From positions 30,581 through 94,580 of the forward strand of contig JAQTRS010000001.1 of assembly GCA_028711705.1 (NCBI GenBank): a DNA stretch of 64,000 nt, in the 5' to 3' direction. Made by a program: the position numbers and the translations under genes. Below the pieces are notes generated by a model. It had not been told where the DNA came from. It made no database searches and was given only the letters and a program-made list of their open reading frames with translations. Position 1 is the stretch's first letter, and each line of letters starts with the position of its first letter. The stretch comes from Candidatus Moraniibacteriota bacterium (GTDB lineage Bacteria > Patescibacteriota > Minisyncoccia > Moranbacterales > UBA1568). Shown piece after piece: positions 1 through 15,024 of the stretch.

Positions 1-670
1 GCTCCACAAAGGAAACAAAGAAGCGGAAGCCCGTCTTAAAAACGGCACCCTGACTGGTAAGGATGCTTTCGAGCTTTTCACGACCTATGGATTCCCCTTG
101 GAAATGACGCAGGAAATCGCCATCGAGAACGGAGTGGATGTGAATATCGTCGAATTCGAAAAGGAATTCAAGAATCATCAGGACCTTTCCCGTGCCGGAA
201 GCGCCGGAAAATTCAAGGGAGGATTGGCGGATCACGGGGAGATGTCGGTGAAGTATCACACGACAACCCACTTGCTTCAGCAGGCCCTGCGCCAAGTCTT
301 GGGCGATCATGTGGCTCAGAAGGGAAGCAACATCACCGCCGAGCGTTTGCGTTTCGACTTCTCGCACCCGAGCAAAATGACGGAGGAGGAAATCAAACGG
401 ACGGAAAGTATCGTGAATGAGAAAATCAAAGAAGCGCTGCCAGTGAGTTATCAGGATATCCCATTGGAAGAAGCGAAGAAGCTCGGGGCGATCGGACTTT
501 TCGGCGAGAAGTATGGCGAGACCGTGCGGGTGTATAAAGTCGGCGACTTCAGCCTCGAATTCTGCGGGGGGCCACACGTGACCAATACTTCGGAGCTTGG
601 AACGTTTAAGATTACGAAGGAAGAGGCTTCGTCGGCCGGGGTGCGACGGATCAAGGCGGTGCTGGAATAA
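1..670 (+). CDS. alaS: Alanyl-tRNA synthetase, C-terminal portion (5'-partial). It ends shortly after the editing-domain CGGPHV motif with no C-Ala domain.
   Basis: The frame entering the window translates LHKGNKEAEARLKNGTLTGKDAFELFTTYGFPLEMTQEIA, continuing to HTTTHLLQQALRQVLG and EFCGGPHV. These are classic AlaRS editing-domain motifs. Confidence 0.85.
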   Translation, partial: LHKGNKEAEARLKNGTLTGKDAFELFTTYGFPLEMTQEIAIENGVDVNIVEFEKEFKNHQDLSRAGSAGKFKGGLADHGEMSVKYHTTTHLLQQALRQVLGDHVAQKGSNITAERLRFDFSHPSKMTEEEIKRTESIVNEKIKEALPVSYQDIPLEEAKKLGAIGLFGEKYGETVRVYKVGDFSLEFCGGPHVTNTSELGTFKITKEEASSAGVRRIKAVLE

Positions 671-724
671 ATAGCAAGCTTGTAAGGAATTTTTACAAGT
701 TCGAGGCTATCATTTTGTAAAAAA

Positions 725-834
725 GCAACTGTTTCCAAAATAGAAACAGTTGCAAGAGAAATAGTAGTGTGCGCAGATTTTGCACACACTGCCAATATAT
801 GGAGAGTCAACTGTTGCAAAATTTGCAACAGTTG
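725..834. repeat. Cluster of three near-perfect palindromes in an AT-rich spacer. Two share a CAACTGTT core: GCAACTGTTTC-N7-GAAACAGTTGC at 725-753, and CAACTGTTGCAAA-a-TTTGCAACAGTTG at 808-834. The third is an imperfect GTGTGCGCA/TGCACACAC pair at 767-789.
   Basis: Inverted repeats read directly from the sequence between the alaS stop and the ygjP-like start. Confidence 0.6.
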
Positions 835-933
835 AAAAATTAGTTACTATAACCGATTTTAAAATATATTGATGAAAAAGCAATATATAAAAAGTGCATA
901 TTGCATATTTCAATAAACTAGGTGCTTTGTCTC

Positions 934-1494
934 ATGAAAAAAGAAATCAAAACACATAGCGGAACCATCCCGTACACGATGAAATCGGTGCGGTGGTCCA
1001 AGTCGGTGCGGCTTATCGTGCATGGCGATGGGTCGCTCGTTTTGACGAAGCCGTTGTGGGTGAGCGTCAAAAGAGCGGAAGGCTTTCTTTCGGATAAGAT
1101 TGAGTGGATTATCGAGAAGGTGCGGCAGGCGAAAGAGAATCATCCGGCTCATTTGGCACGCCAGGGGACCAAGGAGGAATATGCGAGGCTCAAGAAGCAG
1201 GCGCTCCAATTCGTGACCGAGCGGGTACGTAGTATCAACCAGGCGCATTATGGGTTCGACTATGCCAAAGTTTCGGTGCGGAATCAGAAGACGAGATGGG
1301 GGAGTTGCTCCAAGGATGGCAATCTGAGCTTCAATTACCGCATCGTCCTCCTCCCGCCTCACTGCGCGGATTACCTCATCGCCCACGAACTCTGCCACCT
1401 CAAGCAATTCAACCACTCGGACAAGTTCTGGAATCTCGTATCCAAGGCCTGCCCCGATCACCGAAAGGTGAGAAGGGAGATGCGGGGGTTGTAG
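934..1494 (+). CDS. YgjP-like zinc metallopeptidase (DUF45/WLM, M48 family), a gene type commonly found inside type I RM loci.
   Basis: HELCHL zinc-binding motif in the C-terminal half. Size ~186 aa. Lies directly upstream of hsdM. An alternative GTG start is at 922. Confidence 0.7.
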   Translation: MKKEIKTHSGTIPYTMKSVRWSKSVRLIVHGDGSLVLTKPLWVSVKRAEGFLSDKIEWIIEKVRQAKENHPAHLARQGTKEEYARLKKQALQFVTERVRSINQAHYGFDYAKVSVRNQKTRWGSCSKDGNLSFNYRIVLLPPHCADYLIAHELCHLKQFNHSDKFWNLVSKACPDHRKVRREMRGL

Positions 1495-1657
1495 ATCAAT
1501 TTTTTTTACCTTACATAAAGAGAATTCCTGATAGAGTATCTATTTGGGAATTTTTTTATCAAACTACAAAGAAAATATAAAAAATGCGGGATTTACCCCT
1601 TGTAAAGCCAAGAATTTAGGAGTAGACTAAAGAAAATCAGTAAATTTCCATTCTGCT

Positions 1658-3202
1658 ATGGCAAAAAACAATACTCAGAAATCAGAATCGTTTGAAAAGA
1701 TACTTTTCAGATCGGCGGATAAGTTGAGAAAGAATATGGATGCAGCCGAGTATAAGCATATTGTACTTGGTCTTATTTTTCTCAAATATATCTCTGATTC
1801 TTTTGAGGAGTTGTACGAAAAAATAAAGTTGGGAGAAGGGGATTTTGCAGGAGCAAATCCTGAGGATGCGGACGAGTATCGCGCGGAGAATGTTTTCTTT
1901 GTTCCGCAGATTGCGCGATGGACATTTCTTCATACAAGAGCAAAGCAACCGACTATTGGCAAGGATCTTGATAATGCGATGGAAGCTATTGAAAAAGAAA
2001 ATCCAACACTCAAAGGAATTCTTCCGAAAGTATATGCTAGACCAAACCTTGATAAAACTGCACTTGGTGGACTTATCGACCTTGTGGGAAATATCGCCAT
2101 TGGAACAGAAGCAGCAAAAAGCAAAGATTTACTCGGAAGAGTATATGAGTATTTCCTCGGAGAATTTGCTAATGCCGAAGGAAAGAAGGGTGGCCAATTC
2201 TACACGCCAAAATCAATTGTTCGATTGATGGTAGAAATGGTCGAACCACACAATGGCCGAGTATATGATCCTGCCTGCGGAAGCGGCGGGATGTTTATTA
2301 TGAGTGAGAAATTTGTTCAAAGTCATCAGGGAAGAGTGGATGATATTTCCATCTATGGTCAAGAATCCAATCAGACAACATATCGTCTTTGTCGGATGAA
2401 TCTTGCTATCCGTGGTATTGATGGATCGCAAGTAAGATGGAATACTGAAGGATCCTTTCTTAACGATGTTCACAAAGACCTTAAAGCAGACTATATCCTT
2501 GCGAACCCCCCTTTTAACGATAGCGATTGGTCAGGACAGCTCCTTGTTAATGATCCTCGCTGGCAATATGGTACTCCACCAGCTGGCAACGCCAATTTTG
2601 CATGGCTTCAGCATATGTTGTATCATCTTTCTCCAAAAGGTGTGATGGCATGCGTACTTGCAAACGGATCACTTTCAAGTCAGACAAGCGGGGAAGGCGA
2701 AATTCGAAAATCACTTATCGAGCATGATGTTGTGGATTGTATCGTCGCACTTCCAAAGCAGCTTTTCTACAATACCGGTATCCCAGCGTGTATTTGGTTT
2801 CTTTCTCGAAAGCGTACGGGTAATGGCGATCGAAAGCGGACTGGAGAAATACTTTTTATCGACGCAAGCGAAGTTGGATATATGGCCGATCGCACTCACA
2901 AAGAATTTAGTGAGGATGATATGGCTATGATTGCCAATACGTATCACGAGTGGCGCAAAGAGGATGGGAAATATGAAGATAAAAAAGGTTTCTGTAAATC
3001 CGCTACGTTGGAAGAAATAGTCAAACATAATTTTGTCCTTACACCGGGGCGCTATGTGGGTATTCCAGATGAGATAGATGACGGAATCCCATTTGAAACC
3101 AAAATTTCCGCCCTTACCGCAACTCTCAAAAACCAGATGACACAGGAGGAAAAGTTGAATGCAGAGATACGAAAGCAGCTAGGGAAAATTAACATATTCT
3201 GA
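1658..3202 (+). CDS. hsdM: Type I restriction-modification system methyltransferase subunit HsdM (N6-adenine)
   Basis: N-terminal HsdM_N-like [25 protein letters not shown]. AdoMet motif DPACGSGG. Catalytic NPPFN motif. Confidence 0.92.
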
Positions 3203-3322
3203 TACCCCCCAACAAGAAATCATCACGGATAGTGCTTTAAATGAGCCATATTTACGACTATTTACATCTCTTGTATAGTATAGTATACTAGAAACATACA
3301 TTTGTAGATAAGTATACTCTCT

Positions 3323-4747
3323 ATGAACCAAGAACTCATTCATTATCTTCAACAGCAACTTCGAACAACTGATGAACGGTTGAAACGCTTTACGCATAGT
3401 TCAGATGGAAAAAAACATCCGAGCCGTTTTATGTTTGTGAAATTGAAACAATACATCGATGATTTTCTTGAAAAAAAATCCGAAAATAAAATGATTATCA
3501 TTCCAGGATTTCGAGGTGTTGGTAAAACGACATTGACAGCTCAAATGTGCGAGCACTACCAACGTCGCATAAAACACACCCTCTTTATTTCGATTGAGGA
3601 TGCAAAGAATCTTTTTGATGTCGGTATTGCTGAGATTATGAATGCTTACGAAAGTATTCTTGGGAAGGATCTTGAAAGTATTGATTATCCAATCCTTATT
3701 TTCCTCGATGAAGTTCAAACTGATCCAAAGTGGGCAATTACACTTAAATCACTTTTCGAAAAAACGACAAATGTGTTTTTTTGCTGCACCGGTTCATCTG
3801 CAGTAACGCTTCAAACAACAAGCAATCTTGCTCGTCGAGCTGTTTTTGAACGGATGCCGCCTATGTGTTTCACTGAGTACGAAATGGTGAAGAATAATAT
3901 TTTTCCGATAACTAAATTGAAAGATTTTATTCGACAGGCAGTGTATTTTTCTCAGGATGCCGATGCAGTTTATGCAAGTCTCCTTCGTATTCAGCCATCG
4001 GTCAATCAGTATTGGTCGAAAGTAAATCGAAATGATATTCGTCCTTATTTGGCATACGGCGCCTTACCCTTTTCTCTTATAATGCCAAATGAAACGGTAG
4101 TCTATGAATCGATCTCGTTGCTTTTGGATAAGATTATCAAATCAGATCTTTCGACGATCGGTAATTTCGATATTGAGACATTGGGAGCGGTCAAGCGAAT
4201 TCTCTTTGCTATTGCTGAGAATGACACAACGAGCCTCAAAACTCTCGAAGATCGTTTTGGCCTGAGTCGTCTCACTATTGCTAATATCTTTGATGCTTTA
4301 GAGAAAGCGGAATTACTTATCAAAATCCCAGCTTACGGATCAAATATGACTATTGCTAAAAAGGCGAATAAATACCTCTTTATGGCCCCGGCTATCCGAA
4401 TGTCTTTCTTTTATCTTACTGGTCTTGAGAGCACTTACCTTGTCAGGCAAGGAAAACTGCTTGAGGATTCTGTTGGCTCGCATCTCTATCGAGAATTTAT
4501 TCTCAGGGGCCAGGGCGCTATTCGTTATGATAGCGCTCAAGGGGGAGCAGATTTCATATTGCAGATTCAAAATAATCGACAAATCATCATTGAAGTTGGA
4601 ATGGGAAAGAAGGATAGAAAGCAAGTTGCTAACAGTGCGAAGAAAATCAATGCCGTTTACAATATTGTTTTTTCAGAATCAGAACTCAGGATTGATCATG
4701 ATTTGAAAACAGTATTTGTACCGTTAGATTATTATTTTTTGATGTAA
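3323..4747 (+). CDS. AAA+ ATPase of the AAA_14/DUF4143 (COG1373-like) type, nested between hsdM and hsdS.
   Basis: Walker A PGFRGVGKTT. Walker B ILIFLDEVQ. ~470 aa architecture typical of the AAA+DUF4143 family. Confidence 0.65.
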   Translation: MNQELIHYLQQQLRTTDERLKRFTHSSDGKKHPSRFMFVKLKQYIDDFLEKKSENKMIIIPGFRGVGKTTLTAQMCEHYQRRIKHTLFISIEDAKNLFDVGIAEIMNAYESILGKDLESIDYPILIFLDEVQTDPKWAITLKSLFEKTTNVFFCCTGSSAVTLQTTSNLARRAVFERMPPMCFTEYEMVKNNIFPITKLKDFIRQAVYFSQDADAVYASLLRIQPSVNQYWSKVNRNDIRPYLAYGALPFSLIMPNETVVYESISLLLDKIIKSDLSTIGNFDIETLGAVKRILFAIAENDTTSLKTLEDRFGLSRLTIANIFDALEKAELLIKIPAYGSNMTIAKKANKYLFMAPAIRMSFFYLTGLESTYLVRQGKLLEDSVGSHLYREFILRGQGAIRYDSAQGGADFILQIQNNRQIIIEVGMGKKDRKQVANSAKKINAVYNIVFSESELRIDHDLKTVFVPLDYYFLM

Positions 4748-4780
4748 GGAAAGAATTTTTAGTTTTTATGATTTTTTATT

Positions 4781-5311
4781 ATGGGACCGAAAGATATAAG
4801 AAAGAAAATTTTAGAGATGTTGTATTCTCAGAGATCAGGGTTTATGGTAAAAACTGATGATTTAATAAATAGCTTTAAACCTAAACTTGATGACCCAATT
4901 TTGCATCAAGAAATAGAGTATCTTAAAGGAAAGGGTTTTCTTGAGACCCAAGCTGAATTCATGGGGAGAGAGTATCTTTATTTTGCTGGCTTAAAAATTA
5001 CTCCTATTGGAATTGATCTTGTTGAAAATCCAGAAGAATTTGGAAAATTATTTAACGTACATATAAATAATTTTGGAAATATCTCACAAAGCAACGTTGT
5101 AGCTAGCTCTTCCAATATTAATCAAAGTATAAATGTTCAAACCAATGATATCTCTCCTGAAATTTTAGAATTGTTACAGCAGTTAAAAAAAGCGATTGAG
5201 GATGGCGACATTGAGAAGAAGGATTCTCTGCTACAGAAGCTGAGGAGCGGTGCTGAAAATGTATTTTGGAACCTCGTAGCAAGTGGTATTTATACGGTGA
5301 TTCAAAAATAA
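4781..5311 (+). CDS. Hypothetical protein with a probable N-terminal winged-helix DNA-binding domain, nested in the RM locus.
   Basis: The ORF starts 34 nt after the ATPase stop. The N-terminal KKILEMLYSQRSGFMVKTDDLINSF...EIEYLKGKGFLET resembles PadR/wHTH folds. The C-terminal half is Asn/Ser-rich and helical. Confidence 0.45.
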   Translation: MGPKDIRKKILEMLYSQRSGFMVKTDDLINSFKPKLDDPILHQEIEYLKGKGFLETQAEFMGREYLYFAGLKITPIGIDLVENPEEFGKLFNVHINNFGNISQSNVVASSSNINQSINVQTNDISPEILELLQQLKKAIEDGDIEKKDSLLQKLRSGAENVFWNLVASGIYTVIQK

Positions 5312-5331
5312 AGTGGGGTAAATTTACACAT

Positions 5332-5745
5332 ATGTTAAAAGTAAAGTACAAAGAAAGGCCAACGAAGGAGGCTATAGAAGGATATTGCAGAATGATTGAG
5401 GGTCTTTTGTCCGTTCATAAGTTGAAATTAGAAGTTGATATCTGGGATGGTCCTATGATTATCAAATCATATCAGGGCAATCAACATATAGAGGATGCAT
5501 ATGTTTGGATACGAGGTATTGCTGTTAAGATGCCTGGAAGGAAAGTTTTTTCTATATATCCAGCGCCAAGAGGCGGATTAGATGAAACCGTTTCAGATAA
5601 GGAAATATGGGATGATGCCTATATTATTCAAGATGAAATTTATCAGAAGTTGAATAGATTTTCTTATGTAGGAAATATGTCTGATCCATATTGGGAATTA
5701 TGGGATAACCTCCCCAAGGCGGTTAAGAAATTGAAAGGGGAATAA
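5332..5745 (+). CDS. Hypothetical protein (~137 aa), nested in the RM locus.
   Basis: ORF with an ATG 21 nt after the upstream stop, same strand, very AT-rich. No recognisable motif. Confidence 0.4.
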   Translation: MLKVKYKERPTKEAIEGYCRMIEGLLSVHKLKLEVDIWDGPMIIKSYQGNQHIEDAYVWIRGIAVKMPGRKVFSIYPAPRGGLDETVSDKEIWDDAYIIQDEIYQKLNRFSYVGNMSDPYWELWDNLPKAVKKLKGE

Positions 5746-5761
5746 ATTTTACAAGAAAGTT

Positions 5762-6406
5762 ATGTTTTCTAGCGAGATATTTGAGGTAATAAATCATGGG
5801 AGCGAAGAGGTAAACATCGAGTATAAAGATTCGATGGATTGGTCTTTGGATGAAACGAGATGGAAAATTATTCAGGCTGTTTTAGCGATGTCTAACACAA
5901 AAGATGGCGGATACATCGTTATTGGTGTAGAGGAAAGAGAAAAAGTTTTTTATGCAAAGGGTATGTCTGAGGAGTATTTTAAATCATTTAATCATGACCA
6001 TCTCTCAAATGTGTTAAGCGAATACTGTGATCCAAATATTCAGTTTCGCGTATTGTCAGATGTAGCGGAAATAGATGATGAGAAAAGGCTATTTATTGTG
6101 ATTGAGGTCTCGGAATCAATGCAACCTGTCATATGTAAAAAATTAGCACTACGGAGCAAAAAAGAAAAAGCGTTTCCAGAAAATATTGCATTAAGGAAAA
6201 ATGCTATTTACATACGTTCAAAAACACCTATTGAATCTCGCGAAATCGCATCAGCACATGAATGGCGCGAATTTATCGAGCGAATTGTTGAGAAAAATCG
6301 TGCAGAATTGATCAAAAGAATGCCTTGTTCCAGGTTTAAGTCAGAGATCTTAGTATCTGACAGTGATAAATTTAATAAGGATCAGGAAAGAGATAAGATT
6401 ATATAA
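5762..6406 (+). CDS. AlbA_2 / Schlafen-like putative DNA-binding domain protein, nested in the RM locus.
   Basis: EYKDSMDWSLDETRWKIIQAVLAMSNTKDGGYIVIGVEE matches the AlbA_2 (divergent Schlafen core) signature E.K...AfaNt.GG.l.iGV. Confidence 0.5.
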   Translation: MFSSEIFEVINHGSEEVNIEYKDSMDWSLDETRWKIIQAVLAMSNTKDGGYIVIGVEEREKVFYAKGMSEEYFKSFNHDHLSNVLSEYCDPNIQFRVLSDVAEIDDEKRLFIVIEVSESMQPVICKKLALRSKKEKAFPENIALRKNAIYIRSKTPIESREIASAHEWREFIERIVEKNRAELIKRMPCSRFKSEILVSDSDKFNKDQERDKII

Positions 6407-6411
6407 AACAT

Positions 6412-7146
6412 ATGTCAGATACTGATAAATTGTTGGCTAAGATTAAGTCACGCGGCCATTGGAAGGTGGTTATACGACCAACCGAGTATTCGGAGAATCT
6501 TATTCCATCCTTAGAAGATTGCAAAAGATTAATAGAGGAGAGTAGTGTTAGTCTAAGAGGGTGGGATTACCCTTATATTGATAGACATGGTAATGTGGGA
6601 AATGCAAGTGCAAATAGTGTTCATTCAATGTGTGATTGGGATGACATGTCATTTTTTGAATACTGGAGATTCTATAAAACGGGACAATTTGTTCATTATT
6701 TTTCAATGAGGGAAGATTGGGAAATTGATGAAAATAAAAAAGTAGAAATTCAAAGAAACCTTCGTACGAAATCCGATAAGTTTCTTGGTATTCTATCGAC
6801 ACTTTATTCAATAACGGAAATTTTTGAGTTCGGTTCGAGATTGTTTACAAAGTTAGAGCTTGTCAAGGGTGTTGAAATTATAATTGAATTACATGGAGTT
6901 AATGGAAGAACCTTATTTTTCTGGGATTCTTTCATGCGTATTCTCTATAAGGATTACACGTGCGTATATACTGATGACCTGGCTAAAATTTCACTGACAA
7001 TACCGCGAGAGGATTTAATAAGAAATTCGACAGACCTTGCGCTCCGAGAGTCAATTAAACTTTTCAGAGAAGCTTTCAATTGGAGTGGGGCTAACGAAGG
7101 TATTTTCAGGGAAGATCAGAAAAAGCTATTGGAACGTCGTTTGTAA
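6412..7146 (+). CDS. Hypothetical protein (244 aa), nested in the RM locus. It is possibly the functional partner of the preceding AlbA_2 protein.
   Basis: ORF starts 6 nt after the AlbA_2 gene stop. Trp/Phe-rich. No recognisable motif. Confidence 0.45.
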   Translation: MSDTDKLLAKIKSRGHWKVVIRPTEYSENLIPSLEDCKRLIEESSVSLRGWDYPYIDRHGNVGNASANSVHSMCDWDDMSFFEYWRFYKTGQFVHYFSMREDWEIDENKKVEIQRNLRTKSDKFLGILSTLYSITEIFEFGSRLFTKLELVKGVEIIIELHGVNGRTLFFWDSFMRILYKDYTCVYTDDLAKISLTIPREDLIRNSTDLALRESIKLFREAFNWSGANEGIFREDQKKLLERRL

Positions 7147-7169
7147 TTGAAAGTAAAATATTTCTCAGT

Positions 7170-8408
7170 ATGAAAAATTGGAAAGAAACAACTTTAGGAG
7201 AGGTGACTGATCTTATTATTGACCATAGGGGACTGACTCCAAAAAAGATTGGAGGAGATTGGTCTGATATTGGGTATCGGGCGATTTCTGCAAAGTCTAT
7301 TAAAAATGGTCAGCTTGTAAATGAGGAACAAATGAATATTCTTCCGGAAAACCTCTATAAAAAGTGGATGAAGGAGGAAATTCAATACGGCGATATTTTT
7401 CTGACTTCTGAGGCACCTCTGGGTGAACATATCGTTTGGAAGTCTGAGGAGAAGTTGGTATTGAGTCAAAGAATTTTTGGCATAAGAACCAAGAAAGAAA
7501 AACTTGATCCGTTTTTCTTTAATTATTTTATCGATAGCAAATTTTACCAACACGAACTAAAGAGCAAGGAATCCGGGTCTACTGTTACGGGCATAAAACA
7601 ATCGGAATTATTAAAGACTAGGGTTATTCTTCCACCTCTCGAAGAGCAGAAAGAAATTGCGGGGGTTTTGGGGAGTTTGGATGATAAGATCGAGCTTTTG
7701 CGAGAGGAGAACAAAACCTTGGAAGCAACCGCACAGACCATTTTCAAAGAATGGTTCGTCAATTTCAATTTCCCAAATATTGAAGGAAAACCCTACAAAT
7801 CATCCGGCGGAAAAATGATCAACTCCGAACTCGGCTTGATCCCAGATGGGTGGAGAGTTGGGAGACTATCAGAGATTGCGAATTTCCTGAATGGCTTGGC
7901 ATTACAGAAGTTTCCGCCAGAGAGTACCACTGAGTATTTACCTGTTATTAAAATTAAAGAACTGAATTCTGGAATTTCTAACCAAACCGATAAAGCAAGC
8001 GCGAAACTGGATAAGAAATATATTGTTGAGGATGGAGATATCTTATTTTCATGGTCAGGGAGCCTCATCGTAGATATTTGGAAATACGGAAGAGGGGCAT
8101 TGAATCAGCATTTGTTTAAGGTAGCATCTGACCAGTACCCAAAGTGGTTTTATTTATATTGGACGAAAGAGCATTTGGCGAACTTTCAGCAAATAGCAAC
8201 TGCAAAGGCCGTTACAATGGGGCATATTCAGAGACATCATTTGGATGATGCGCTTGTCACGATACCAATTGAAGAGTTTATGAAGATATCAGATGATGTA
8301 TTTGCACCGATGCTTGAAAAAATTATCAATAATAATTCTGAGATCCAGACTCTCTCAACTCTTCGCGATACTCTTTTACCAAAGTTGATGAGTGTTAATA
8401 ATAAGTAA
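7170..8408 (+). CDS. hsdS: Type I restriction-modification system specificity subunit HsdS (two target-recognition domains)
   Basis: Conserved central and C-terminal HsdS helices (LPPLEEQKEIAGVLGSLDDKIELLREENKTLEATAQTIFKEWF and LSTLRDTLLPKLMSV). ~410 aa. Confidence 0.88.
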   Translation: MKNWKETTLGEVTDLIIDHRGLTPKKIGGDWSDIGYRAISAKSIKNGQLVNEEQMNILPENLYKKWMKEEIQYGDIFLTSEAPLGEHIVWKSEEKLVLSQRIFGIRTKKEKLDPFFFNYFIDSKFYQHELKSKESGSTVTGIKQSELLKTRVILPPLEEQKEIAGVLGSLDDKIELLREENKTLEATAQTIFKEWFVNFNFPNIEGKPYKSSGGKMINSELGLIPDGWRVGRLSEIANFLNGLALQKFPPESTTEYLPVIKIKELNSGISNQTDKASAKLDKKYIVEDGDILFSWSGSLIVDIWKYGRGALNQHLFKVASDQYPKWFYLYWTKEHLANFQQIATAKAVTMGHIQRHHLDDALVTIPIEEFMKISDDVFAPMLEKIINNNSEIQTLSTLRDTLLPKLMSVNNK

Positions 8409-8415
8409 TTTATGT

Positions 8416-9393
8416 ATGGTGACAAGGCAACGAAAACTGGGATCAGTAAAAAATGAATTGATTCGAAAATCTATTGAGTCAATGCTTTCTGCTGTTCAAA
8501 TATTTAATAATCCCAGTATCCAATTTAAATCTGAATCTTTTATAGTTCTCTCTGTGATTGCATGGACATACCTCTTACATGCTCACTACAGAGAACAAAA
8601 AATCGAATACCGGTATTTTGAACAGAAAGGGAAGAGAAGAAAGTTTGATACAACGAAGAATGGAGCATATAAATATTGGGAACTTGAAAGATGTTTAAAT
8701 GATATTAAATCACCTATAGACAAAGTTACATCAAATAATTTAAAGTTTTTGATTGGGTTAAGACATGAGATAGAACATCAAATGACAACTAAAATTGATG
8801 ATTTATTGAGTGCTAGATTTCAAGCATGTTGTTTGAATTATAATAGTTACCTAAAGAAATTATTTCCAAAACAGGATGGGATTGAAAAGTATTTGTCTTT
8901 TAGTCTTCAGTTCTCATCTTTGAATGAAAAACAGATTGACCAATTGGTTGATTATGAAGATTTACCCCAAAACATTTCAATTTATATACAACAATTTGAT
9001 CAAGAACTACCGGATGAAGAATTTAATGATAGCAGATTTTCTTATAGGGTTTTATTTGTACCGAAAACAGCAAACAGAAAAGGTCAGGCGGACAAGGTTA
9101 TTGAATTTATTCCAGCTGATTCAGAAGTTGCCAAGGGAATGAATAAAGAATATGTATTAGTGAAAGAGAAAGAGAAAATGAAATATTCACCTAGTGAAAT
9201 TTGGAAGAAAATACAAAAAGACGGTTTTAAAAAATTTGGCGCATACCAACACACTCAACTGTGGCGGACTGAAAACGCAAAAGACCCCTCAAAGGGATTT
9301 GGTACTTTCGTTGTAAAAACTTGGTATTGGTATGATTCCTGGCTTGATTTTGTAAAAAAACATTGTGAGGAGAATAAATCAGAATATACCTAG
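8416..9393 (+). CDS. Hypothetical protein carrying an R-x4-H (RHEIEH) motif, a possible HEPN/Abi-like domain, nested between hsdS and hsdR.
   Basis: ATG at 8416 (MVTRQRK) overlaps the hsdS stop region. The motif GLRHEIEHQ is flanked by predicted helices. Confidence 0.5.
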   Translation: MVTRQRKLGSVKNELIRKSIESMLSAVQIFNNPSIQFKSESFIVLSVIAWTYLLHAHYREQKIEYRYFEQKGKRRKFDTTKNGAYKYWELERCLNDIKSPIDKVTSNNLKFLIGLRHEIEHQMTTKIDDLLSARFQACCLNYNSYLKKLFPKQDGIEKYLSFSLQFSSLNEKQIDQLVDYEDLPQNISIYIQQFDQELPDEEFNDSRFSYRVLFVPKTANRKGQADKVIEFIPADSEVAKGMNKEYVLVKEKEKMKYSPSEIWKKIQKDGFKKFGAYQHTQLWRTENAKDPSKGFGTFVVKTWYWYDSWLDFVKKHCEENKSEYT

Positions 9394-9436
9394 TTTTATG
9401 TGAATGAATACTCGCTCTAAGGATTGATATTAACGG

Positions 9437-10426
9437 ATGATTTTTATGAATGAAAATAGAGAATTTATAGGATATCTTAAGTATTCTGGAAAGTCTGTAG
9501 AGGGTGGATTTTTGGATGCTAGAAAATCTGCAGAAGCTCTACTTGGTTTTGATGAGGTGTTGCGATATTTTATTTCAGTAGGAAATCCAGATTTTAGAAA
9601 TGTTAATTATGAAATACCGGTAAGGGTTAAGAAGGGGTCATGGGGTATTTGGATTCCAATTGGAATAGCTCTCACTCAGTATTTAAACACGATTGCAAAA
9701 AAAGCTGGATCAGATGGTTTTTTTGAGACAGGACCATCAAAGGATATAGAGAAGATGTTTCGAGGTGCAGTTATTGCTGCACAATGGGTAATGAGAATTG
9801 GGATACATGTTGGCGACTTTGCAAAGAAAGAATTCGAGAAAACCGTGAGGATAAAACAAGTAGGTGATGATATAATTATTGGTGTACCAAATGCTGAAGG
9901 TAAAATATTGGATGTGCCAAAAAAATACTTTGATATATATGTTAAATGTCCCGAGAAGCTTTTTTCAAAGAATGCAAACCTTATAGAACAAGATCGGTAT
10001 TTAGAGATGGGCGTGTTTCAAAATAGTGAGGAAGAAAAGGTCCTCGTAACTGAAAAAGAGAAGAATATTTTTTATAAAAAAGATGATTCTGATAAGGATA
10101 TTTTGTTCCCGGAATTAGAACATGGTCAATTTGTTGAATTAGATGGCGAAATTACTAGAGCAACAGAGAGTACAAATACAATTGGATTTAGGTATAAAGA
10201 TCATACCTTGGTTTGTACTCCAGATAAAGATATAGCGATAGCGATATTCAAAAATAAAATGATTTCACAACAAAAGGAACATTTATTCCCCAGAGTAAAA
10301 ATTCGAGGCATTGTATCTAGAGTAGATAAAGATGGTTTCTTTAAAGAGAGAAGGCCCCAAATCATATTTTATGATATTGAATCGTTGGAGGTGGAAGCAA
10401 ATAATCGAAAGATGACACTTTTTTAA
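9437..10426 (+). CDS. Hypothetical protein (~326 aa), nested between hsdS and hsdR.
   Basis: ORF on the operon strand, AT-rich. An alternative start is at 9446. It ends 10 nt before hsdR. Confidence 0.45.
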   Translation: MIFMNENREFIGYLKYSGKSVEGGFLDARKSAEALLGFDEVLRYFISVGNPDFRNVNYEIPVRVKKGSWGIWIPIGIALTQYLNTIAKKAGSDGFFETGPSKDIEKMFRGAVIAAQWVMRIGIHVGDFAKKEFEKTVRIKQVGDDIIIGVPNAEGKILDVPKKYFDIYVKCPEKLFSKNANLIEQDRYLEMGVFQNSEEEKVLVTEKEKNIFYKKDDSDKDILFPELEHGQFVELDGEITRATESTNTIGFRYKDHTLVCTPDKDIAIAIFKNKMISQQKEHLFPRVKIRGIVSRVDKDGFFKERRPQIIFYDIESLEVEANNRKMTLF

Positions 10427-10435
10427 AGTTAAATT

Positions 10436-13400
10436 ATGACCAAAATATTTGAATCAACCATTGAGGAATTTGTAATCGAACTCTTGCAGAATCAAGGGTT
10501 TGAGTATCTATCACCCGAGGATCAAGAGAATGAACGGCCTGATCTGGGTGAAGTGGTATTGAAAGATCGTTTGAAGCGTGCCATCGATGCTATCAATTCG
10601 GGAATTCCGGAGGAAGCCAAGGAACAGGCTTTGAAGTTAGCTCTGAATCTTCCAAGTCAGAATTTGATGGATAATAATGAGATTTTCCATCGGATGCTTA
10701 CGGAAGGAATCGAGGTGGAAGTGATGGGTGTAGATGGTGTGAAAGGTGAGAAGGTTTGGCTTATAGATTTCTTGCATCCTGAGAATAATGAATTCCTTGT
10801 TTGTAATCAGTATACGGTTATTGAAAATGGAGTGAATAAAAGGCCGGATGTTGTGGTATTGGTGAATGGCTTGCCTTTGGTGGTGATAGAACTCAAGAAT
10901 CCTGCAGATGAAAATGCAACAGTGCAAAAAGCATTTACGCAGCTGCAGAATTACAAGAATGCTATTCCGAGCTTGTTTGGATATAATGCGCTTCTGGTGG
11001 CGTCGGACGGATTGGATGCGAAGGTCGGGACGATTTCTTCGGATATGTCGCGTTTTTTGGCGTGGAAGTCTCGTGATGGAGTGAAGGAGGATAGTGTAAC
11101 TGTTCCGCAAATTGAAACATTGGTGCGGGGTATGCTTGCTCAAGAAGTCTTGCTTGATTTGGTCAGGAATTTTATTGTCTTTGAGAAAGATAAAAAAGAA
11201 GATCCGGAAACGGGAATGATTTCAATAGTTACTATTAAGAAAATTGCAGCGTATCATCAATACTATGCAGTCAATAAAGCGATCACCTCGACAATGACTG
11301 CCTCGAGTGAAGAGGGGAATAGAAAAGCTGGTGTGGTATGGCATACGCAAGGATCCGGAAAATCGCTTTCGATGGTTTTCTATACTGGGAAAGTAGTATT
11401 GTCATTGAACAATCCTACGGTGGTAGTGATTACGGATCGAAATGATTTGGATGAGCAATTGTTTGATACATTTGCGAGTTGCGGACAGTTATTGCGACAA
11501 GATCCTGTGCAGGCAAAGAGTCGTGGTGAACTCAAAGATCTTTTGAGGGTTGCTGGCGGAGGGATTGTGTTTACGACGATTCAGAAGTTTTTTCCCGAGG
11601 ATGGATCGGCGGATTTTGATATGCTCTCGGAACGAAAAAATATTATCGTGGTTGCTGATGAAGCGCATCGTAGCCAATATGGATTTGGAGCAAAGACTCG
11701 TGAAAAAGATGGTGAAGTATCTACGAAATATGGATTTGCGAAGTATTTGCGCGACGCTTTGCCTCATGCGTCGTTTATAGGGTTTACGGGGACGCCGATT
11801 GAAAAGGAGGATGCTTCGACACCGGCAGTGTTTGGAAATTATGTGGATGTGTATGATATCGCGCAAGCGGTAGAGGATGGCGCGACGGTGCGCATATACT
11901 ATGAATCACGACTTGCTAAAGTGCATCTTGATGATGAGGAGAAGGCGCGATTGGATGAGGAGGTTTCTTCTATTACAGAAGGGGAAGAAAGTACGGCTGC
12001 CGAAAGAGCGAAAGCGAAGTGGGCACAGCTTGAAGCTATTGTCGGTCATCGGGATCGGTTGAAGGTTATCGCTTCGGATATCGTAGATCATTTTGAAAAG
12101 CGACAAGCAGTGATGGAGGGAAAAGGGATGATCGTTTGTATGAGTCGAAGAATTGCTGTTGAGCTTTATGAAGAGATTGTAAAGATTCGTCCGGATTGGC
12201 ATGATAGTGATTTGAAGAAAGGTGCGATAAAAGTAGTGATGACTTCGTCTTCTTCGGATCCTGAGAATTGGCAACCACATCATACAAGTAAGCAGGCACG
12301 TAAAGCGCTTGGTGATCGACTTAAGGATACGAATGATACTTTGAAGTTGGTGATCGTGCGGGATATGTGGCTTACGGGGTTTGATGCGCCGTGTTTGCAT
12401 ACGATGTATGTCGACAAGCCAATGCGTGGACATAATCTTATGCAGGCGATTGCCCGGGTGAATCGGGTGTTTAAGGATAAGTCTGGTGGTTTGATCGTGG
12501 ATTATATCGGTATTGCCTCAGATCTGAAGTCTGCTCTCGCAACATATACTGCAAGCGGTGGAAAAGGTGCGCCAACACTTGACCAGGAAGAAGCAGTCGC
12601 CGCTTTGCTTGAGAAGTTTGAAATCGTCGAGCAGATGTTCCATGGCTTTGATTATAGGCGATTCTTTTCTGTGGATACGAGAGAGAAATTGACATTAATT
12701 CTTGAAGCTCAGGAGTATGTATTTGGTTTGGATGATGGAAAGAATCGATTTACACGTCAGGTAGGATTGCTCTCGCAAGCCTTTGCTCTGTCGGTGCCGA
12801 ATCTGAAAGCTATGGCAATAAAAGATGAGGTAGGATTTTTTCAGGCAGTGAAGGCTCGTCTGACAAAATTTGAATCAATCGGAACAGGAAAATCGGATCT
12901 TGAAATTGAGACGGCTATTCGACAAATAGTTGATCGTGCTGTGGTATCGGAAGGCGTGATTGATGTGTTTGATGCTGCAGGAATTAAGAAACCGGATATT
13001 TCTATATTGTCGGATGAATTTTTGGAAGAGGTAAAGCATATGGAGCGGAAGAATCTTGCACTGGAGCTTTTGAAAAAGTTGTTGAATGATGAGATCAAGA
13101 TGCGGACGAGAAAGAATTTCATCCAGAGTAGGAAATTGTCCGAGATGCTTGAAAATGCTATCAAGAAATACCAGAACAATCTTTTGACAACAGCGCAGGT
13201 AATTGAAGAATTGATTGGATTGGCAAAGGAAATTCGTGAAGGTGATAAACGAGGAGAAGAACTTGATTTGAGTGAGGACGAGTTAGCGTTCTATGATGCT
13301 TTGGCAAATAATGACAGCGCCCGTGGTATTTTGGGAGACAAACAATTAGCAGTAATTGCAGTTGAGGTTTTCCGAAGCGTGAAAGGTAATGCAACAATAG

Positions 13401-13552
13401 ACTGGAACCTCAAAGAAACAGTACGTGCTCGATTACGTCGGGATGTGAAACGTATTCTTAATCGATATGGGTATCCACCAGATGAACAGTTAGTTGCGAC
13501 AGAGAATGTCTTGAAACAGGCTGAGTTGATGGCGAGTGAATTAGGGGAGTAA
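10436..13552 (+). CDS. hsdR: Type I restriction enzyme endonuclease/translocase subunit HsdR
   Basis: 1038 aa. The N-terminus [24 protein letters not shown] is typical of HsdR. A nuclease motif ([15 protein letters not shown]) is followed by SF2 helicase motifs (GSGKS..., DEAHRSQ). Confidence 0.92.
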
Positions 13553-13859
13553 TTTTTTAAAATATAGGAAGATTAAAATAATGCGTACTTGATAAGGATG
13601 AATGATTTGAATGAAAATGCGTAGAAGCTATATATTCACGCCACAATACCCGTATAACCCTATCAAAACGATTGCAGAAATAAACCCCCTGAAACCCGTT
13701 GACTTTCCCTTGCAGGCATGCTTCAATAGACGTGTTGTTTGCGTCGCGGTTTTTGCGGATCCAGGTCTTGCAGAGACGGGCAACAACCCATCGGCGCCCC
13801 ATAGGTGATGGGGTTCAAAGAATGATTCAGGTGGCTTTTGAATGGCGAGGAGTAGGAAG

Positions 13860-14174
13860 ATGAATAGGCTCGAAGTGGGTAGGGTGATTTCCTTTGATTC
13901 GGCAAAAGGAAAAAGATTCGGGTATCTCCAGCTGGAGAATGGGGAGAAAATGTGGTTTCATGAGGGTGATCACACCGCTCTTGTGACGGTAGATAAAGGG
14001 AGGCATCGTTTTGTGAAGCGGGTCGTCTGCCCGAAACCGATACGGCAGGGGGATGAAATCTGGTTTGTTCGAGGTTTCGGAAGCTCGGGCAAGGAAAGGG
14101 CGAGGTGTTGGTGTTACAGGAAGCGATCCAGACATACGGATTGCCGAACAAGACAAAAACCTACCGTCCATTGA
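13860..14174 (+). CDS. Hypothetical small protein with a cold-shock-domain-like N-terminus and a basic Cys-containing tail.
   Basis: GRVISFDSAKGKRFGYLQLENGEKMWFHEGD resembles the CSD pattern G.V.wF...KGfGFI...G.dvFvH. The alternative start at 13842 adds a basic leader. Confidence 0.3.
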   Translation: MNRLEVGRVISFDSAKGKRFGYLQLENGEKMWFHEGDHTALVTVDKGRHRFVKRVVCPKPIRQGDEIWFVRGFGSSGKERARCWCYRKRSRHTDCRTRQKPTVH

Positions 14175-14313
14175 AGAATATACGGCATGATTGGGAATAA
14201 CATTTTCCCATAGCCAAACAAGGTTTGCCAAGCATGCGTGCGTGGCAGACCTTTTGATTTTTATGAGGCAATCGATAATCCGTATGGCGAAGTTAGTTTT
14301 GAGCTGATATACT

Positions 14314-15024
14314 GTGAGTATGAGGCTTACGTTAAAAGAACAACGTGTCGCTGATGAAGCGAGGCAGTGGGTTAGATCTCATCAGTTGAATATTATCGAT
14401 CATTTCGTCGGAAGTGTCGAGCCGGTGGAATTTCCCGTATCGATTTTTATGGCAGGGTCTCCTGGCGCTGGAAAAACGGAATTTTCGAAACGATTGATCA
14501 AAAGGTTGGGCGGGAATATCGTACGTATCGATGCGGATGATATCCGAGATATGCTGCCGCAGTATCAGGGAAAGAATTCCTATGTTGTCCATGGTGCCGC
14601 AGCTCTTGGCGTTGAGAAAGTGTACGATTTCGTATTGAAAAAGCGATTACACGCCCTGCTCGATGGAACATTTCAAAAATATGAAAAAGCTACCGATAAT
14701 ATACGCCGTTCTCTGAAGTATGAGAGGAGTATCGATATCTTCTACGTGTATCAGGATCCTTTGGTCGCATGGGATTTTACGCAGAAGCGTGAGGTGGTTG
14801 AAGGCAGGAATATTTTGAAAGGAGTGTTCGTTGATGCATTTTTCGCTTCTTATGAGAATGTGAAAAGGGTAAAATTGGAATATGACGAGGCAGTGCGTCT
14901 CAATGTGGTGTTCAAGGATATTTCGAATCACGATGAAGAGATATGGTATAATGTAGATATCGATCAGATTGACTCGTATGTAAAAATAGGGTACACTCGC
15001 ACAGAACTAGAAAAACGCTTATGA
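14314..15024 (+). CDS. Zeta-toxin family P-loop kinase (PezT/zeta-like)
   Basis: Walker A FMAGSPGAGKT is followed by RIDADDIRDMLPQY, the typical zeta_toxin layout. ~235 aa. Confidence 0.65.
   Translation: MSMRLTLKEQRVADEARQWVRSHQLNIIDHFVGSVEPVEFPVSIFMAGSPGAGKTEFSKRLIKRLGGNIVRIDADDIRDMLPQYQGKNSYVVHGAAALGVEKVYDFVLKKRLHALLDGTFQKYEKATDNIRRSLKYERSIDIFYVYQDPLVAWDFTQKREVVEGRNILKGVFVDAFFASYENVKRVKLEYDEAVRLNVVFKDISNHDEEIWYNVDIDQIDSYVKIGYTRTELEKRL

Follow-up and report, generated by a model that had tools for sequence, protein, structure and literature searches.

Introduction

Prokaryotic Schlafen proteins (pSlfns) defend against phage, and they cannot cleave tRNA without their Ex4(E/D)xK motif (Perez Taboada et al. 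2026, PMC13056530). The antiviral role of bacterial Schlafen tRNases was established as recently as 2025-26; in 97% of the catalogued pSlfns, nuclease and sensor form one polypeptide, and the characterised ones are all fused (PMC13056530). In pSlfn5, the sensor domain varies more than the rest (PMC13056530). Genes embedded in type I restriction-modification (RM) operons have been catalogued systematically, and PrrC is hardly ever found outside type I RM (Payne et al. 2024, bioRxiv 10.1101/2024.01.29.577857). PanA (PMC8832971), NetFlax (PMC10440598) and CapRel (PMC9712102) contain antitoxin or sensor domains that serve many toxins.

Here, a type I RM operon from a Candidatus Moranbacteria genome is examined; the window, i.e. 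the whole stretch of DNA that was analysed, comprises 64,000 nucleotides. Five genes (g1 to g5) lie between hsdM and hsdS, and a sequence-only reading had taken them for one defence module, undescribed in this position. That novelty claim is not supported: embedded type I cargo has been catalogued (Payne et al. 2024, bioRxiv 10.1101/2024.01.29.577857) and the AAA_14/DUF4143 type to which g1 belongs is already a PADLOC candidate, while phage defence by Schlafen tRNases dates from 2025-26 (PMC13056530). The new part is the split arrangement of a Schlafen nuclease (g4) and g5; RM embedding and Schlafen defence are already published. It is reasonably likely that the 3.97 kb between the two RM genes (3203-7169) are composite cargo with at least three functionally independent units, including an RM-independent g4-g5 Schlafen system.

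Layout of the locus

By ORF calls, the cargo consists of five + strand genes (3323-7146), and both of its borders are intact.

hsdM, 1658..3202, + strand: methyltransferase of the type I RM system, 514 aa; borders the cargo site upstream
Spacer, 3203..3322, + strand: 120 nt, AT-rich, with a promoter-like site; the operon's sole sizeable gap
g1, 3323..4747, + strand: 474 aa; P-loop NTPase (AAA_14), MarR-like wHTH and DUF4143 (PD-(D/E)XK-like)
g2, 4781..5311, + strand: 176 aa; function not assigned by profile matches
g3, 5332..5745, + strand: 137 aa from ATG (the longest ORF begins at TTG, 5266); small family without known fold
g4, 5762..6406, + strand: 214 aa; stand-alone prokaryotic Schlafen (AlbA_2) nuclease domain; predicted tRNase effector
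g5, 6412..7146, + strand: 244 aa; conserved protein paired with g4; predicted to act as regulator, neutraliser or sensor
hsdS, 7170..8408, + strand: specificity subunit, 412 aa; borders the cargo site downstream
hsdR, 10436..13552, + strand: restriction subunit, 1038 aa, full length

The RM subunits are recognised both by Pfam (hsdM: N6_Mtase 7.8e-113, HsdM_N 1.4e-22; hsdS: Methylase_S 1.6e-30, in two stretches; hsdR: HSDR_N, SWI2_SNF2, T1R_D3-like and T1RH-like_C) and by PADLOC (MTase_I 1.5e-214, Specificity_I 2.4e-97 and REase_I 1233 bits, respectively). ORF calls and Pfam together confirm the five same-strand genes between hsdM and hsdS, and gene calls are identical on an independent public contig (L001). 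From hsdM through g1 to g5 and on to hsdS, the intergenic lengths are 120, 33, 20, 16, 5 and 23 nt. The tight spacing described earlier therefore stands, with true gaps of 33, 20, 16 and 5 nt in place of 34, 21, 17 and 6, which are start-minus-end values. The promoter-like TTTACA-17-TATACT at 3261-3289 in the hsdM-g1 spacer is a consensus match only, and promoter-like sites in the region do not exceed the shuffled expectation in number; terminators predicted inside the RM operon do not rise above background.

The whole RM island has a GC content of 0.33-0.45, versus ~0.51 for the remaining window. The cassette genes, at 0.33-0.38 (g1 0.38, g2 0.33, g3 0.36, g4 0.35, g5 0.36), are AT-richer than the RM genes, at 0.39-0.43 (hsdM 0.42, hsdS 0.39, hsdR 0.43), as had been judged by eye.

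Cargo turnover at the hsdM-hsdS junction

The hsdM-hsdS junction is a known cargo hotspot. Relatives of hsdM, 51-89% identical, were collected from 80 metagenome loci, and the junction was scored in 56 loci with hsdM in this identity range. In this lineage, the expected adjacency of hsdM and hsdS is seen in only about half of the cases: the two genes adjoin in 29/56 relatives, and 25/56 carry more than 500 nt of unrelated cargo. Other junction cargo among the relatives includes recombinase, DUF3800, Fic, KilA-N, IrrE+HTH, GmrSD, RhuM and PDDEXK genes. Nucleotide homology with the closest relatives spans hsdM, the hsdS core and hsdR; none of the loci with 51-89% identical hsdM shows homology to 3203-7169. 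In this survey of homologous type I loci, which had been proposed as a check, the cassette is absent. A secondary insertion into the RM operon, suggested previously, agrees with this pattern, and the hsdM-hsdS stretch is supported as secondary, variable cargo. The locus illustrates rapid cargo turnover on either side of hsdS in a type I RM operon, which is useful for 'guilt-by-embedding' discovery, a principle that is not new.

The genes g1, g2 and g3

Pfam recognises both AAA_14 (9e-24) and DUF4143 (7.3e-9) in g1, as the first reading had it. The protein matches PADLOC PDC-S01 (PDLC04787; 1.5e-27, 94.5 bits, residues 38-437), a single-gene defence candidate. Its Walker A (62-70, GFRGVGKTT) and Walker B (126-131, IFLDEV) motifs are both intact. 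DUF4143 is a listed member of the PD-(D/E)XK superfamily (PMC3424549); the PD-(D/E)XK-like motif of g1, D410...E424-V-G-M-G-K429, has a non-canonical E-V-G-M-G-K spacing. The literature yielded no paper that ties DUF4143 to tested defence. Like other PADLOC 'guilt-by-embedding' candidates, g1 (PDC-S01) and a further gene downstream of hsdS, g6 (PDC-S19), are nested in type I RM; PDC families are predictions, and g2, g3, g4 and g5 match neither these nor any other PADLOC model.

The label 'wHTH-like', given earlier to g2, could not be confirmed: the protein has no match in Pfam, PADLOC or the PDB, and its residues 5-83 give only weak matches to PHROG families of unknown function. It features a low-complexity linker, a helical C-terminus and a hydrophobic 16-aa tail. 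A single homologue (59% identity) was found in 5.8 billion clusters, with a PIN_12 gene and hsdS downstream of it. Neither g3 nor g5 is matched by Pfam. Homologues of g3 occur solo or beside TIR_2 or trypsin-like genes, mostly outside RM loci; these associations, like that of g2, speak against a five-gene module. Both g2 and g3 are rare. As elsewhere they adjoin PIN, TIR or protease-type effector genes, they may have an accessory or regulatory role beside a partner, or be left over from earlier cassettes.

The Schlafen nuclease g4

The AlbA_2/Schlafen-like character of g4 is corroborated by Pfam, with SLFN_AlbA_2 (PF04326) matched at 2.6e-11 and 44.5 bits (gathering cutoff 25.3). The catalytic Ex4ExK motif is intact (E15-EVNI-E20-Y-K22), and E15, E/D20 and K22 are 100% conserved across 70 g4 homologues. 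The family profile matches the structures of SLFN11 (1.5e-7), CbCash (3.5e-7), Slfn8 (3.7e-5) and also SLFN14, and in SLFN11 and CbCash the catalytic motif lines up with that of the family. By its PF04326 domain and Ex4(E/D)xK motif, g4 qualifies as a pSlfn, sharing both with RorSlfn5 and EcoSlfn7 (PMC13056530) and with Cash (PDB 9ylu); judged by these features, it is predicted to be a tRNA-cleaving RNase effector. The HMM searches thus place the recognisable parts of the cassette in defence-type families (g1 in PDC-S01, g4 among Schlafen nucleases with a catalytic motif).

With pSlfns, the locus has in common a modular principle in which one effector goes with changing accessory domains; in this case, the setting is a defence locus. 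Unlike the fused pSlfns, g4 comprises the Slfn domain and a 60-aa tail only and stands alone, with g5 as a separate, translationally coupled gene; furthermore, g5 has neither Pfam annotation nor solved-fold match and is no more variable than the nuclease. It may correspond to the 'unannotated' or 'TBP-like' pSlfn fusion class (PMC13056530).

The g4-g5 pair and its variants

Relatives of g5 were surveyed in 80 genome loci, by crude ORF calling and with type I genes detected by single-sequence phmmer, which could miss divergent RM. In 70/80 loci, from many phyla, an AlbA_2 gene lies directly upstream of the g5 relative and g1-g3 do not accompany the pair, contrary to the five-gene module; g2 and g3 occur in none of the 80. 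The two genes overlap by 4 nt in 51/70 loci, and at the source locus they are separate, 5 nt apart. Their divergences are correlated (Spearman 0.42), and natural Schlafen-g5 fusions exist (P0120, L023). Hence, g4-g5 is an autonomous two-gene pair. No third gene family recurs near g5 relatives in more than 7/80 loci, and the nearest relatives (61-62% identity) are in non-type-I settings. A g1-like gene was scored in one of the 80 loci (L023); when immediate neighbours of the pair are counted, an AAA_14/DUF4143 gene occurs in 2/80, and some cooperation of g1 with g4-g5 is conceivable. Defence-island support for the pair is weak because its immediate neighbours are heterogeneous, often housekeeping genes or other toxin-antitoxin (TA) pairs. 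Among 2.9 million viral contigs, one carries the pair.

The partner of g5 can also be exchanged. In L003 (g5 50% identical), a RelA/SpoT-like gene with an EIQVRT motif is upstream, with a 4-nt overlap; in L013, the upstream gene is TIR_2; and in P0116/L008, an N-terminal domain without annotation is fused to g5. The swaps are therefore two separate-gene cases and one fusion to an unannotated domain. Because g5 is found fused to Schlafen, or paired with RelA/SpoT-like or TIR proteins, it seems to be a regulator or sensor that is reused across interchangeable toxic effectors.

As in PanA, NetFlax and CapRel, one partner domain is combined with unrelated toxic effectors, which in those systems include RelA/SpoT-like toxSAS, either in an operon or as a fusion. 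The PanA-like pattern of a two-gene operon with one partner and unrelated effectors is seen with AlbA_2 (70 loci), RelA_SpoT (L003) and TIR_2 (L013), and as a fusion in L008. In contrast to PanA-type systems, g5 has another effector set (Schlafen, TIR, RelA/SpoT-like) and another fold, and it has no homology to Panacea/DUF4065 or any Pfam family.

The structure model of g5 is confident and matches no known or solved fold. There is no recognisable fold or motif, and genomic context suggests that g5 could be a neutraliser, sensor, enzyme or chaperone. Mean pairwise identity is 0.32 for g5 versus 0.34 for the nuclease; that the two are conserved about equally speaks against g5 being a rapidly evolving sensor for some phage protein, and for the same reason g5 may sense a conserved small molecule or host perturbation instead. 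More tentatively, g5 could represent a new domain family with a new fold, spread widely over bacteria (including CPR) and archaea, and could serve as a portable regulator or sensor of three or more immune effectors that are unrelated to one another (Schlafen RNase, TIR and RelA/SpoT-like nucleotidyltransferase), a proposal about which we have more doubt than confidence. If true, the family would be a counterpart of the Panacea antitoxin domain and add another reusable control domain to prokaryotic immunity. The widespread split version would also offer a clean genetic handle on the restraint and activation of Schlafen nucleases, because its partner is a gene of its own and also works with TIR and RelA/SpoT-like effectors.

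Proposed mode of action and alternatives

To the observed gene content, motif conservation, g4-g5 linkage, fusions, partner swaps and cargo turnover among relatives, the explanation favoured here adds a putative RNase activity, a role of g5 as neutraliser and sensor, and an anti-phage phenotype, all of which we infer. Composite cargo would have built up where a horizontally acquired type I RM operon has a junction prone to recombination. The translationally coupled g5 would bind g4 and hold it inactive; once an infection-linked cue is sensed, g4 would cleave tRNA, translation would stop, and the infection would be aborted or the phage burst reduced. The pair would act independently of the RM enzyme, and g1 would be a stand-alone NTP-dependent nucleic-acid sensor or nuclease.

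It is unlikely that g4-g5 is instead a conventional type II TA (addiction) pair, with g5 as the antitoxin of a Schlafen RNase toxin; such a pair would stabilise the island and not sense phage. The bicistronic arrangement with its 4-nt overlap would suit such a pair, as would a g5 that is not hypervariable and serves unrelated toxin-type domains (RelA/SpoT, TIR) in the manner of PanA antitoxins, and the frequent housekeeping or TA neighbours; however, the stable effector-g5 fusions (P0120, L023, P0116) do not fit a labile, degradable antitoxin and are more akin to a domain that regulates in cis or acts as a sensor, as in CapRel or the fused pSlfns. Since many TA pairs have a role in defence (PMC10440598), the TA and defence readings are compatible.

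The old label 'AlbA_2 putative DNA-binding' would make g4 a non-catalytic nucleic-acid-binding regulator and g5 a ligand-binding co-regulator, together controlling expression of RM or neighbouring genes. This is very improbable: the catalytic triad is invariant across the g4 family, g4 contains no HTH, replacement by TIR or RelA/SpoT-like proteins is typical of toxic effectors and not of regulators, and the neighbouring genes are not conserved.

Finally, as in PrrC/RloC (EcoprrI), a predicted tRNA-targeting nuclease is encoded among type I RM subunit genes, and the sequence-only reading saw one integrated five-gene system with the RM complex as phage sensor. Tight same-strand genes in an intact RM operon without internal terminators above background would be in keeping with this, as would the two other loci where type I genes lie no more than 10 kb from the pair: L023, where an AAA_14/DUF4143 gene adjoins the AlbA_2-g5 fusion, and L056, where the pair is directly upstream of hsdS. 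Yet such genes are lacking within 10 kb in 78/80 loci; PrrC is near-obligate in type I RM, whereas g4-g5 is almost always outside, which makes guarding by the RM enzyme unlikely. No cassette protein is related in sequence to PrrC or RloC (NTPase plus ACNase domains) or matches their PADLOC models. In metagenome and genome locus surveys, all five genes together were found solely on the source organism's own contig, with no recurrence in other genomes. Because of this restricted co-occurrence, and because g4-g5 travel alone, the five genes are not one system; the co-occurrence data largely refute the RM-guarded reading, which we regard as barely credible, and the hsdM-hsdS cargo is better read as a patchwork of separate insertions, which are probably related to defence.

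A second cargo site between hsdS and hsdR

A second cargo site, which the earlier reading did not mention, lies between hsdS and hsdR and holds two genes.

g6, 8416..9393, + strand: DUF3644 (HEPN) protein with an RHEIEH motif; outside the five-gene finding
g7, 9437..10426, + strand: 329 aa, second hsdS-hsdR cargo gene

The g6 protein matches DUF3644 in Pfam (4e-58) and PDC-S19 in PADLOC (4.9e-165), and has its Rx4H motif at residue 116. HEC-08, a DUF3644 HEPN protein, has been validated as anti-phage (Payne et al. 2024, bioRxiv 10.1101/2024.01.29.577857). The g7 protein matches phrog_32975 (5.4e-57) and, weakly, PADLOC PDC-S42 (0.002); its homologues occupy the same junction in L106.

Organisation and base composition of the locus

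The type I RM operon is complete in the window, with hsdM, hsdS and hsdR all on the + strand. Five further genes lie between hsdM and hsdS:

1658–3202, + strand: hsdM, full-length Pfam and PADLOC matches
3323–4747, + strand: g1, ORF
4781–5311, + strand: g2, ORF
5332–5745, + strand: g3, ORF
5762–6406, + strand: g4, ORF
6412–7146, + strand: g5, ORF
7170–8408, + strand: hsdS, full-length Pfam and PADLOC matches
10436–13552, + strand: hsdR, full-length Pfam and PADLOC matches

Gene calls are identical in an independent public assembly of the source organism, an uncultivated CPR bacterium. Gaps within g1–g5 measure 33, 20, 16 and 5 nt, with spacers of 120 nt after hsdM and 23 nt ahead of hsdS; given this tight spacing, g1–g5 probably share a transcript with hsdS and hsdR. 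That transcript would arise by read-through or from a promoter-like site at 3261–3289 (a consensus match only); terminator and promoter scans of the region gave counts not above shuffled expectation.

The description of five nested AT-rich genes in the sequence-only reading is borne out by both the ORFs and their GC contents (0.33–0.38 for the cargo genes; 0.42, 0.39 and 0.43 for hsdM, hsdS and hsdR). The entire RM island (about 1.6–13.6 kb, GC 0.33–0.45) looks like acquired DNA, because its GC content is below that of the other 50 kb of the window (about 0.51); the nested genes are still more AT-rich than the RM genes of the island. A repeat search found no flanking repeats marking insertion ends, and there are no tRNA genes across the whole window (1–64000) and no RNA families by Rfam in 1–15000.

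Immediately upstream of hsdM lies a gene for a YgjP-like metallopeptidase (922–1494; 3.3e-43), a frequent neighbour of type I RM operons, preceded by a tRNA_SAD-domain ORF (98–670). Just 3' of hsdR, a Zeta_toxin/AAA_33 kinase gene (14314–15024; 2.6e-35) may represent a toxin module of the zeta type on the margin of the AT-rich island; in the public contig of the source organism (L001), a 62-aa ORF follows it.

One cassette or several

The five genes had been proposed to form a single defence module. The distribution of g5 homologues points elsewhere. A family alignment was built from 188 homologues and led to 80 genome loci, from sources including Patescibacteria, Chloroflexota, Nitrospirota, Planctomycetota, Thermodesulfobacteriota, Bathyarchaeota, Methanolobus, Paenibacillus and Martelella; their ORFs were searched with all ten window proteins. 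An AlbA_2 gene like g4 stands immediately 5' of g5 in 70 of the 80 loci, with a 4-nt overlap between the two in 51 of these 70. Cultured hosts with such pairs include Paenibacillus sp. IITD108 (L044) and Martelella radicis DSM 28101 (L070). Matches to g1 occur in one of the 80 loci and matches to g2 or g3 in none, while clustering of all neighbours yielded no further family in more than 7 loci. The genes adjoining the pair are mixed, with DNA methylases, Mrr, HNH and PIF1 helicases at one extreme and clear housekeeping enzymes at the other; type I RM genes occur at just two of the loci, L023 and L056. The nearest relatives of g5 (61–62% identical) sit beside a 213-aa AlbA_2 gene, not in type I loci.

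The best-supported reading is that the cargo comprises three independent units: g4–g5 would be a two-gene Schlafen system, independent of the RM enzyme; g1 an NTPase/nuclease-like candidate acting alone; and g2 and g3 orphan accessory genes or remnants. Functional statements here and below are drawn from sequence and genomic context.

The Schlafen protein and its partner

The product of g4 is a predicted prokaryotic Schlafen nuclease. Its Pfam score exceeds the cutoff, and its family profile matches the solved structures of SLFN11, CbCash, Slfn8 and SLFN14, with the motif E15-x4-E20-x-K22 aligning with their catalytic motif; the E, E/D and K positions are unchanged in 70 homologues. This motif is needed for tRNA cleavage, and bacterial Schlafens provide phage defence (Perez Taboada et al., PMC13056530). 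According to the same study, 97% of bacterial Schlafens are fused to presumed sensor domains, and a second paper describes such fusion for all characterised prokaryotic Schlafens. In the window, by contrast, the Schlafen domain (g4) and g5 are encoded by separate genes.

The structural model of g5 is of high quality (pLDDT 96, pTM 0.93). Residues conserved in the protein are R22, R49, E83, H95, E101, D102 and E136. The nuclease, HEPN or TIR folds that the sequence-only reading proposed looking for in the unassigned proteins were found in neither g5 nor g3. Comparison of the g5 model with viral structures (Foldseek, BFVD) gave no match at E ≤ 0.001, and a PDB sequence search with the g5 profile returned nothing informative.

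In some relatives (P0120, L023), g5 is fused to a Schlafen domain. In a patescibacterial locus (L003, 9198–10720), a g5 protein 50% identical to that of the window is encoded behind a RelA/SpoT-like nucleotidyltransferase with an intact EIQVRT motif (PADLOC PDC-S33, 2.9e-11); in a bathyarchaeotal one (L013, 9410–10717), a TIR_2 gene replaces the Schlafen gene. The g5 homologue P0116 (locus L008) carries an extra, unannotated domain fused at its N-terminus, for which a TIR identity was rejected, as it has neither a Pfam match nor similarity to the L013 TIR protein. Within this stretch of L008 (1288–3901), the P0116 gene is overlapped at its start by one for an AlbA_2-HATPase_c_4-Fic-like_C protein (471 aa).

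A single conserved partner that goes with interchangeable toxic effectors is what characterises neutralising or sensing modules, and g5 is predicted to be one; PanA (PMC8832971), the NetFlax network (PMC10440598) and fused CapRel (PMC9712102) are precedents for such a shared partner. By this mechanism g5 would restrain g4, a predicted tRNase, until released by a cue, and translation would then stop. Mean pairwise identities of g4 and g5 are similar (0.34 and 0.32) and their divergences correlated (Spearman 0.42), which fits co-inheritance. The idea of g5 as a fast-evolving sensor of a phage protein was dropped, since g5 is conserved as much as g4.

A plain toxin–antitoxin pair is a reasonable rival, which overlaps with the defence reading. 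A PrrC-style arrangement, with the nuclease guarded by the RM enzyme and the latter serving as the sensor, as earlier proposed, is not supported, because g4–g5 hardly ever occur together with type I RM.

Schlafen-based defence is already known. The split Schlafen-plus-g5 architecture appears to be uncharacterised so far; the version of g5 that is fused to the nuclease may correspond to one of the 55 published pSlfn classes. The g5 family itself, with its new fold, broad distribution and swappable effector partners, likewise appears uncharacterised.

The remaining nested genes

HMM searches, suggested earlier as a check, identify g1 as an AAA_14/DUF4143 protein and g4 as a Schlafen. The former has intact Walker A and Walker B motifs, a MarR-like wHTH and a DUF4143 domain, and matches PDC-S01, a PADLOC single-gene candidate. 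DUF4143 has been placed within the PD-(D/E)XK superfamily (Steczkiewicz et al., PMC3424549). NCBIfam and PHROGs gave no more than weak P-loop matches (g1) and PHROGs of unknown function, and PDB sequence searches for g1 and g2 were uninformative. Genes of COG2865 and COG1373 have reportedly been noted in defence islands before.

For g2, Pfam, PADLOC and PDB offer no informative match, and a single homologue (59% identity) was found among 5.8 billion protein clusters. Its locus, L082 (34–1990), continues with a gene for a PIN_12 nuclease-like protein and, beyond that, hsdS; here too a pair of genes is nested at an hsdM–hsdS junction, the second one being different.

The g3 model is confident (pLDDT 91) and matches no known fold; a PDB profile search was uninformative. 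The family is small (67 representatives), with no stretch conserved enough for a pattern-based metagenome scan. One homologue (L083, 166–4535) follows a TIR_2 gene and precedes hsdS, DUF3644 and a PD-T7-5/PD-T7-1-like gene; another (L170, 2–1160) lies directly behind a trypsin-like peptidase gene; other homologues are solo. On the strength of these TIR_2 and trypsin-like neighbours, g3, too, may encode a small protein accessory to effectors of several kinds. A fixed g2–g3 pair was considered and dropped, as the homologues of each have different neighbours.

Cargo sites in the RM operon

The hsdM–hsdS junction is a cargo hotspot. Scanning metagenomes with hsdM recovered 80 loci (51–89% identity); among the 56 with a downstream hsdS, the two genes are adjacent in 29, at an intermediate distance in 2 and separated by 0.85–3.5 kb of cargo in 25. 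This survey, also foreseen in the sequence-only reading, reveals variable cargo: tyrosine recombinases (hsdS shufflons), DUF3800, Fic/DOC, KilA-N, an IrrE-like peptidase with HTH, GmrSD, a HATPase_c_4 protein, RhuM and PD-(D/E)XK nucleases. None of these loci carries g1–g5 homologues at that junction; the only g1-like gene (L118) is between hsdS and hsdR. Nucleotide homology to the window ends near the 3' end of hsdM, picks up again within the conserved hsdS core and thereafter covers g6 (one locus) and hsdR, from which we infer that cargo may be exchanged with the conserved RM genes as homology arms. That type I RM operons harbour nested defence cargo is already in print (Payne et al. 2024, bioRxiv 10.1101/2024.01.29.577857).

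A second nested pair, overlooked in the sequence-only reading, lies between hsdS and hsdR:

within 8416–10426: g6, DUF3644/HEPN protein with RHEIEH motif, PADLOC PDC-S19 (4.9e-165)
within 8416–10426: g7, 329-aa protein matching phrog_32975

DUF3644, like PDC-S01, is already catalogued. Among related RM systems, the hsdS–hsdR junction is filled even more often than the hsdM–hsdS one, exceeding 500 nt in 25/33 loci, with the genes adjacent in only 4/33.

Five human-gut metagenome loci (L148, L149, L152, L154 and L158), with hsdM 54–55% identical, carry a gene for a tyrosine recombinase of ~330 aa right behind hsdM, along with several incomplete copies of hsdS. Such arrangements are phase-variable hsdS shufflons and put the same junction to another use.
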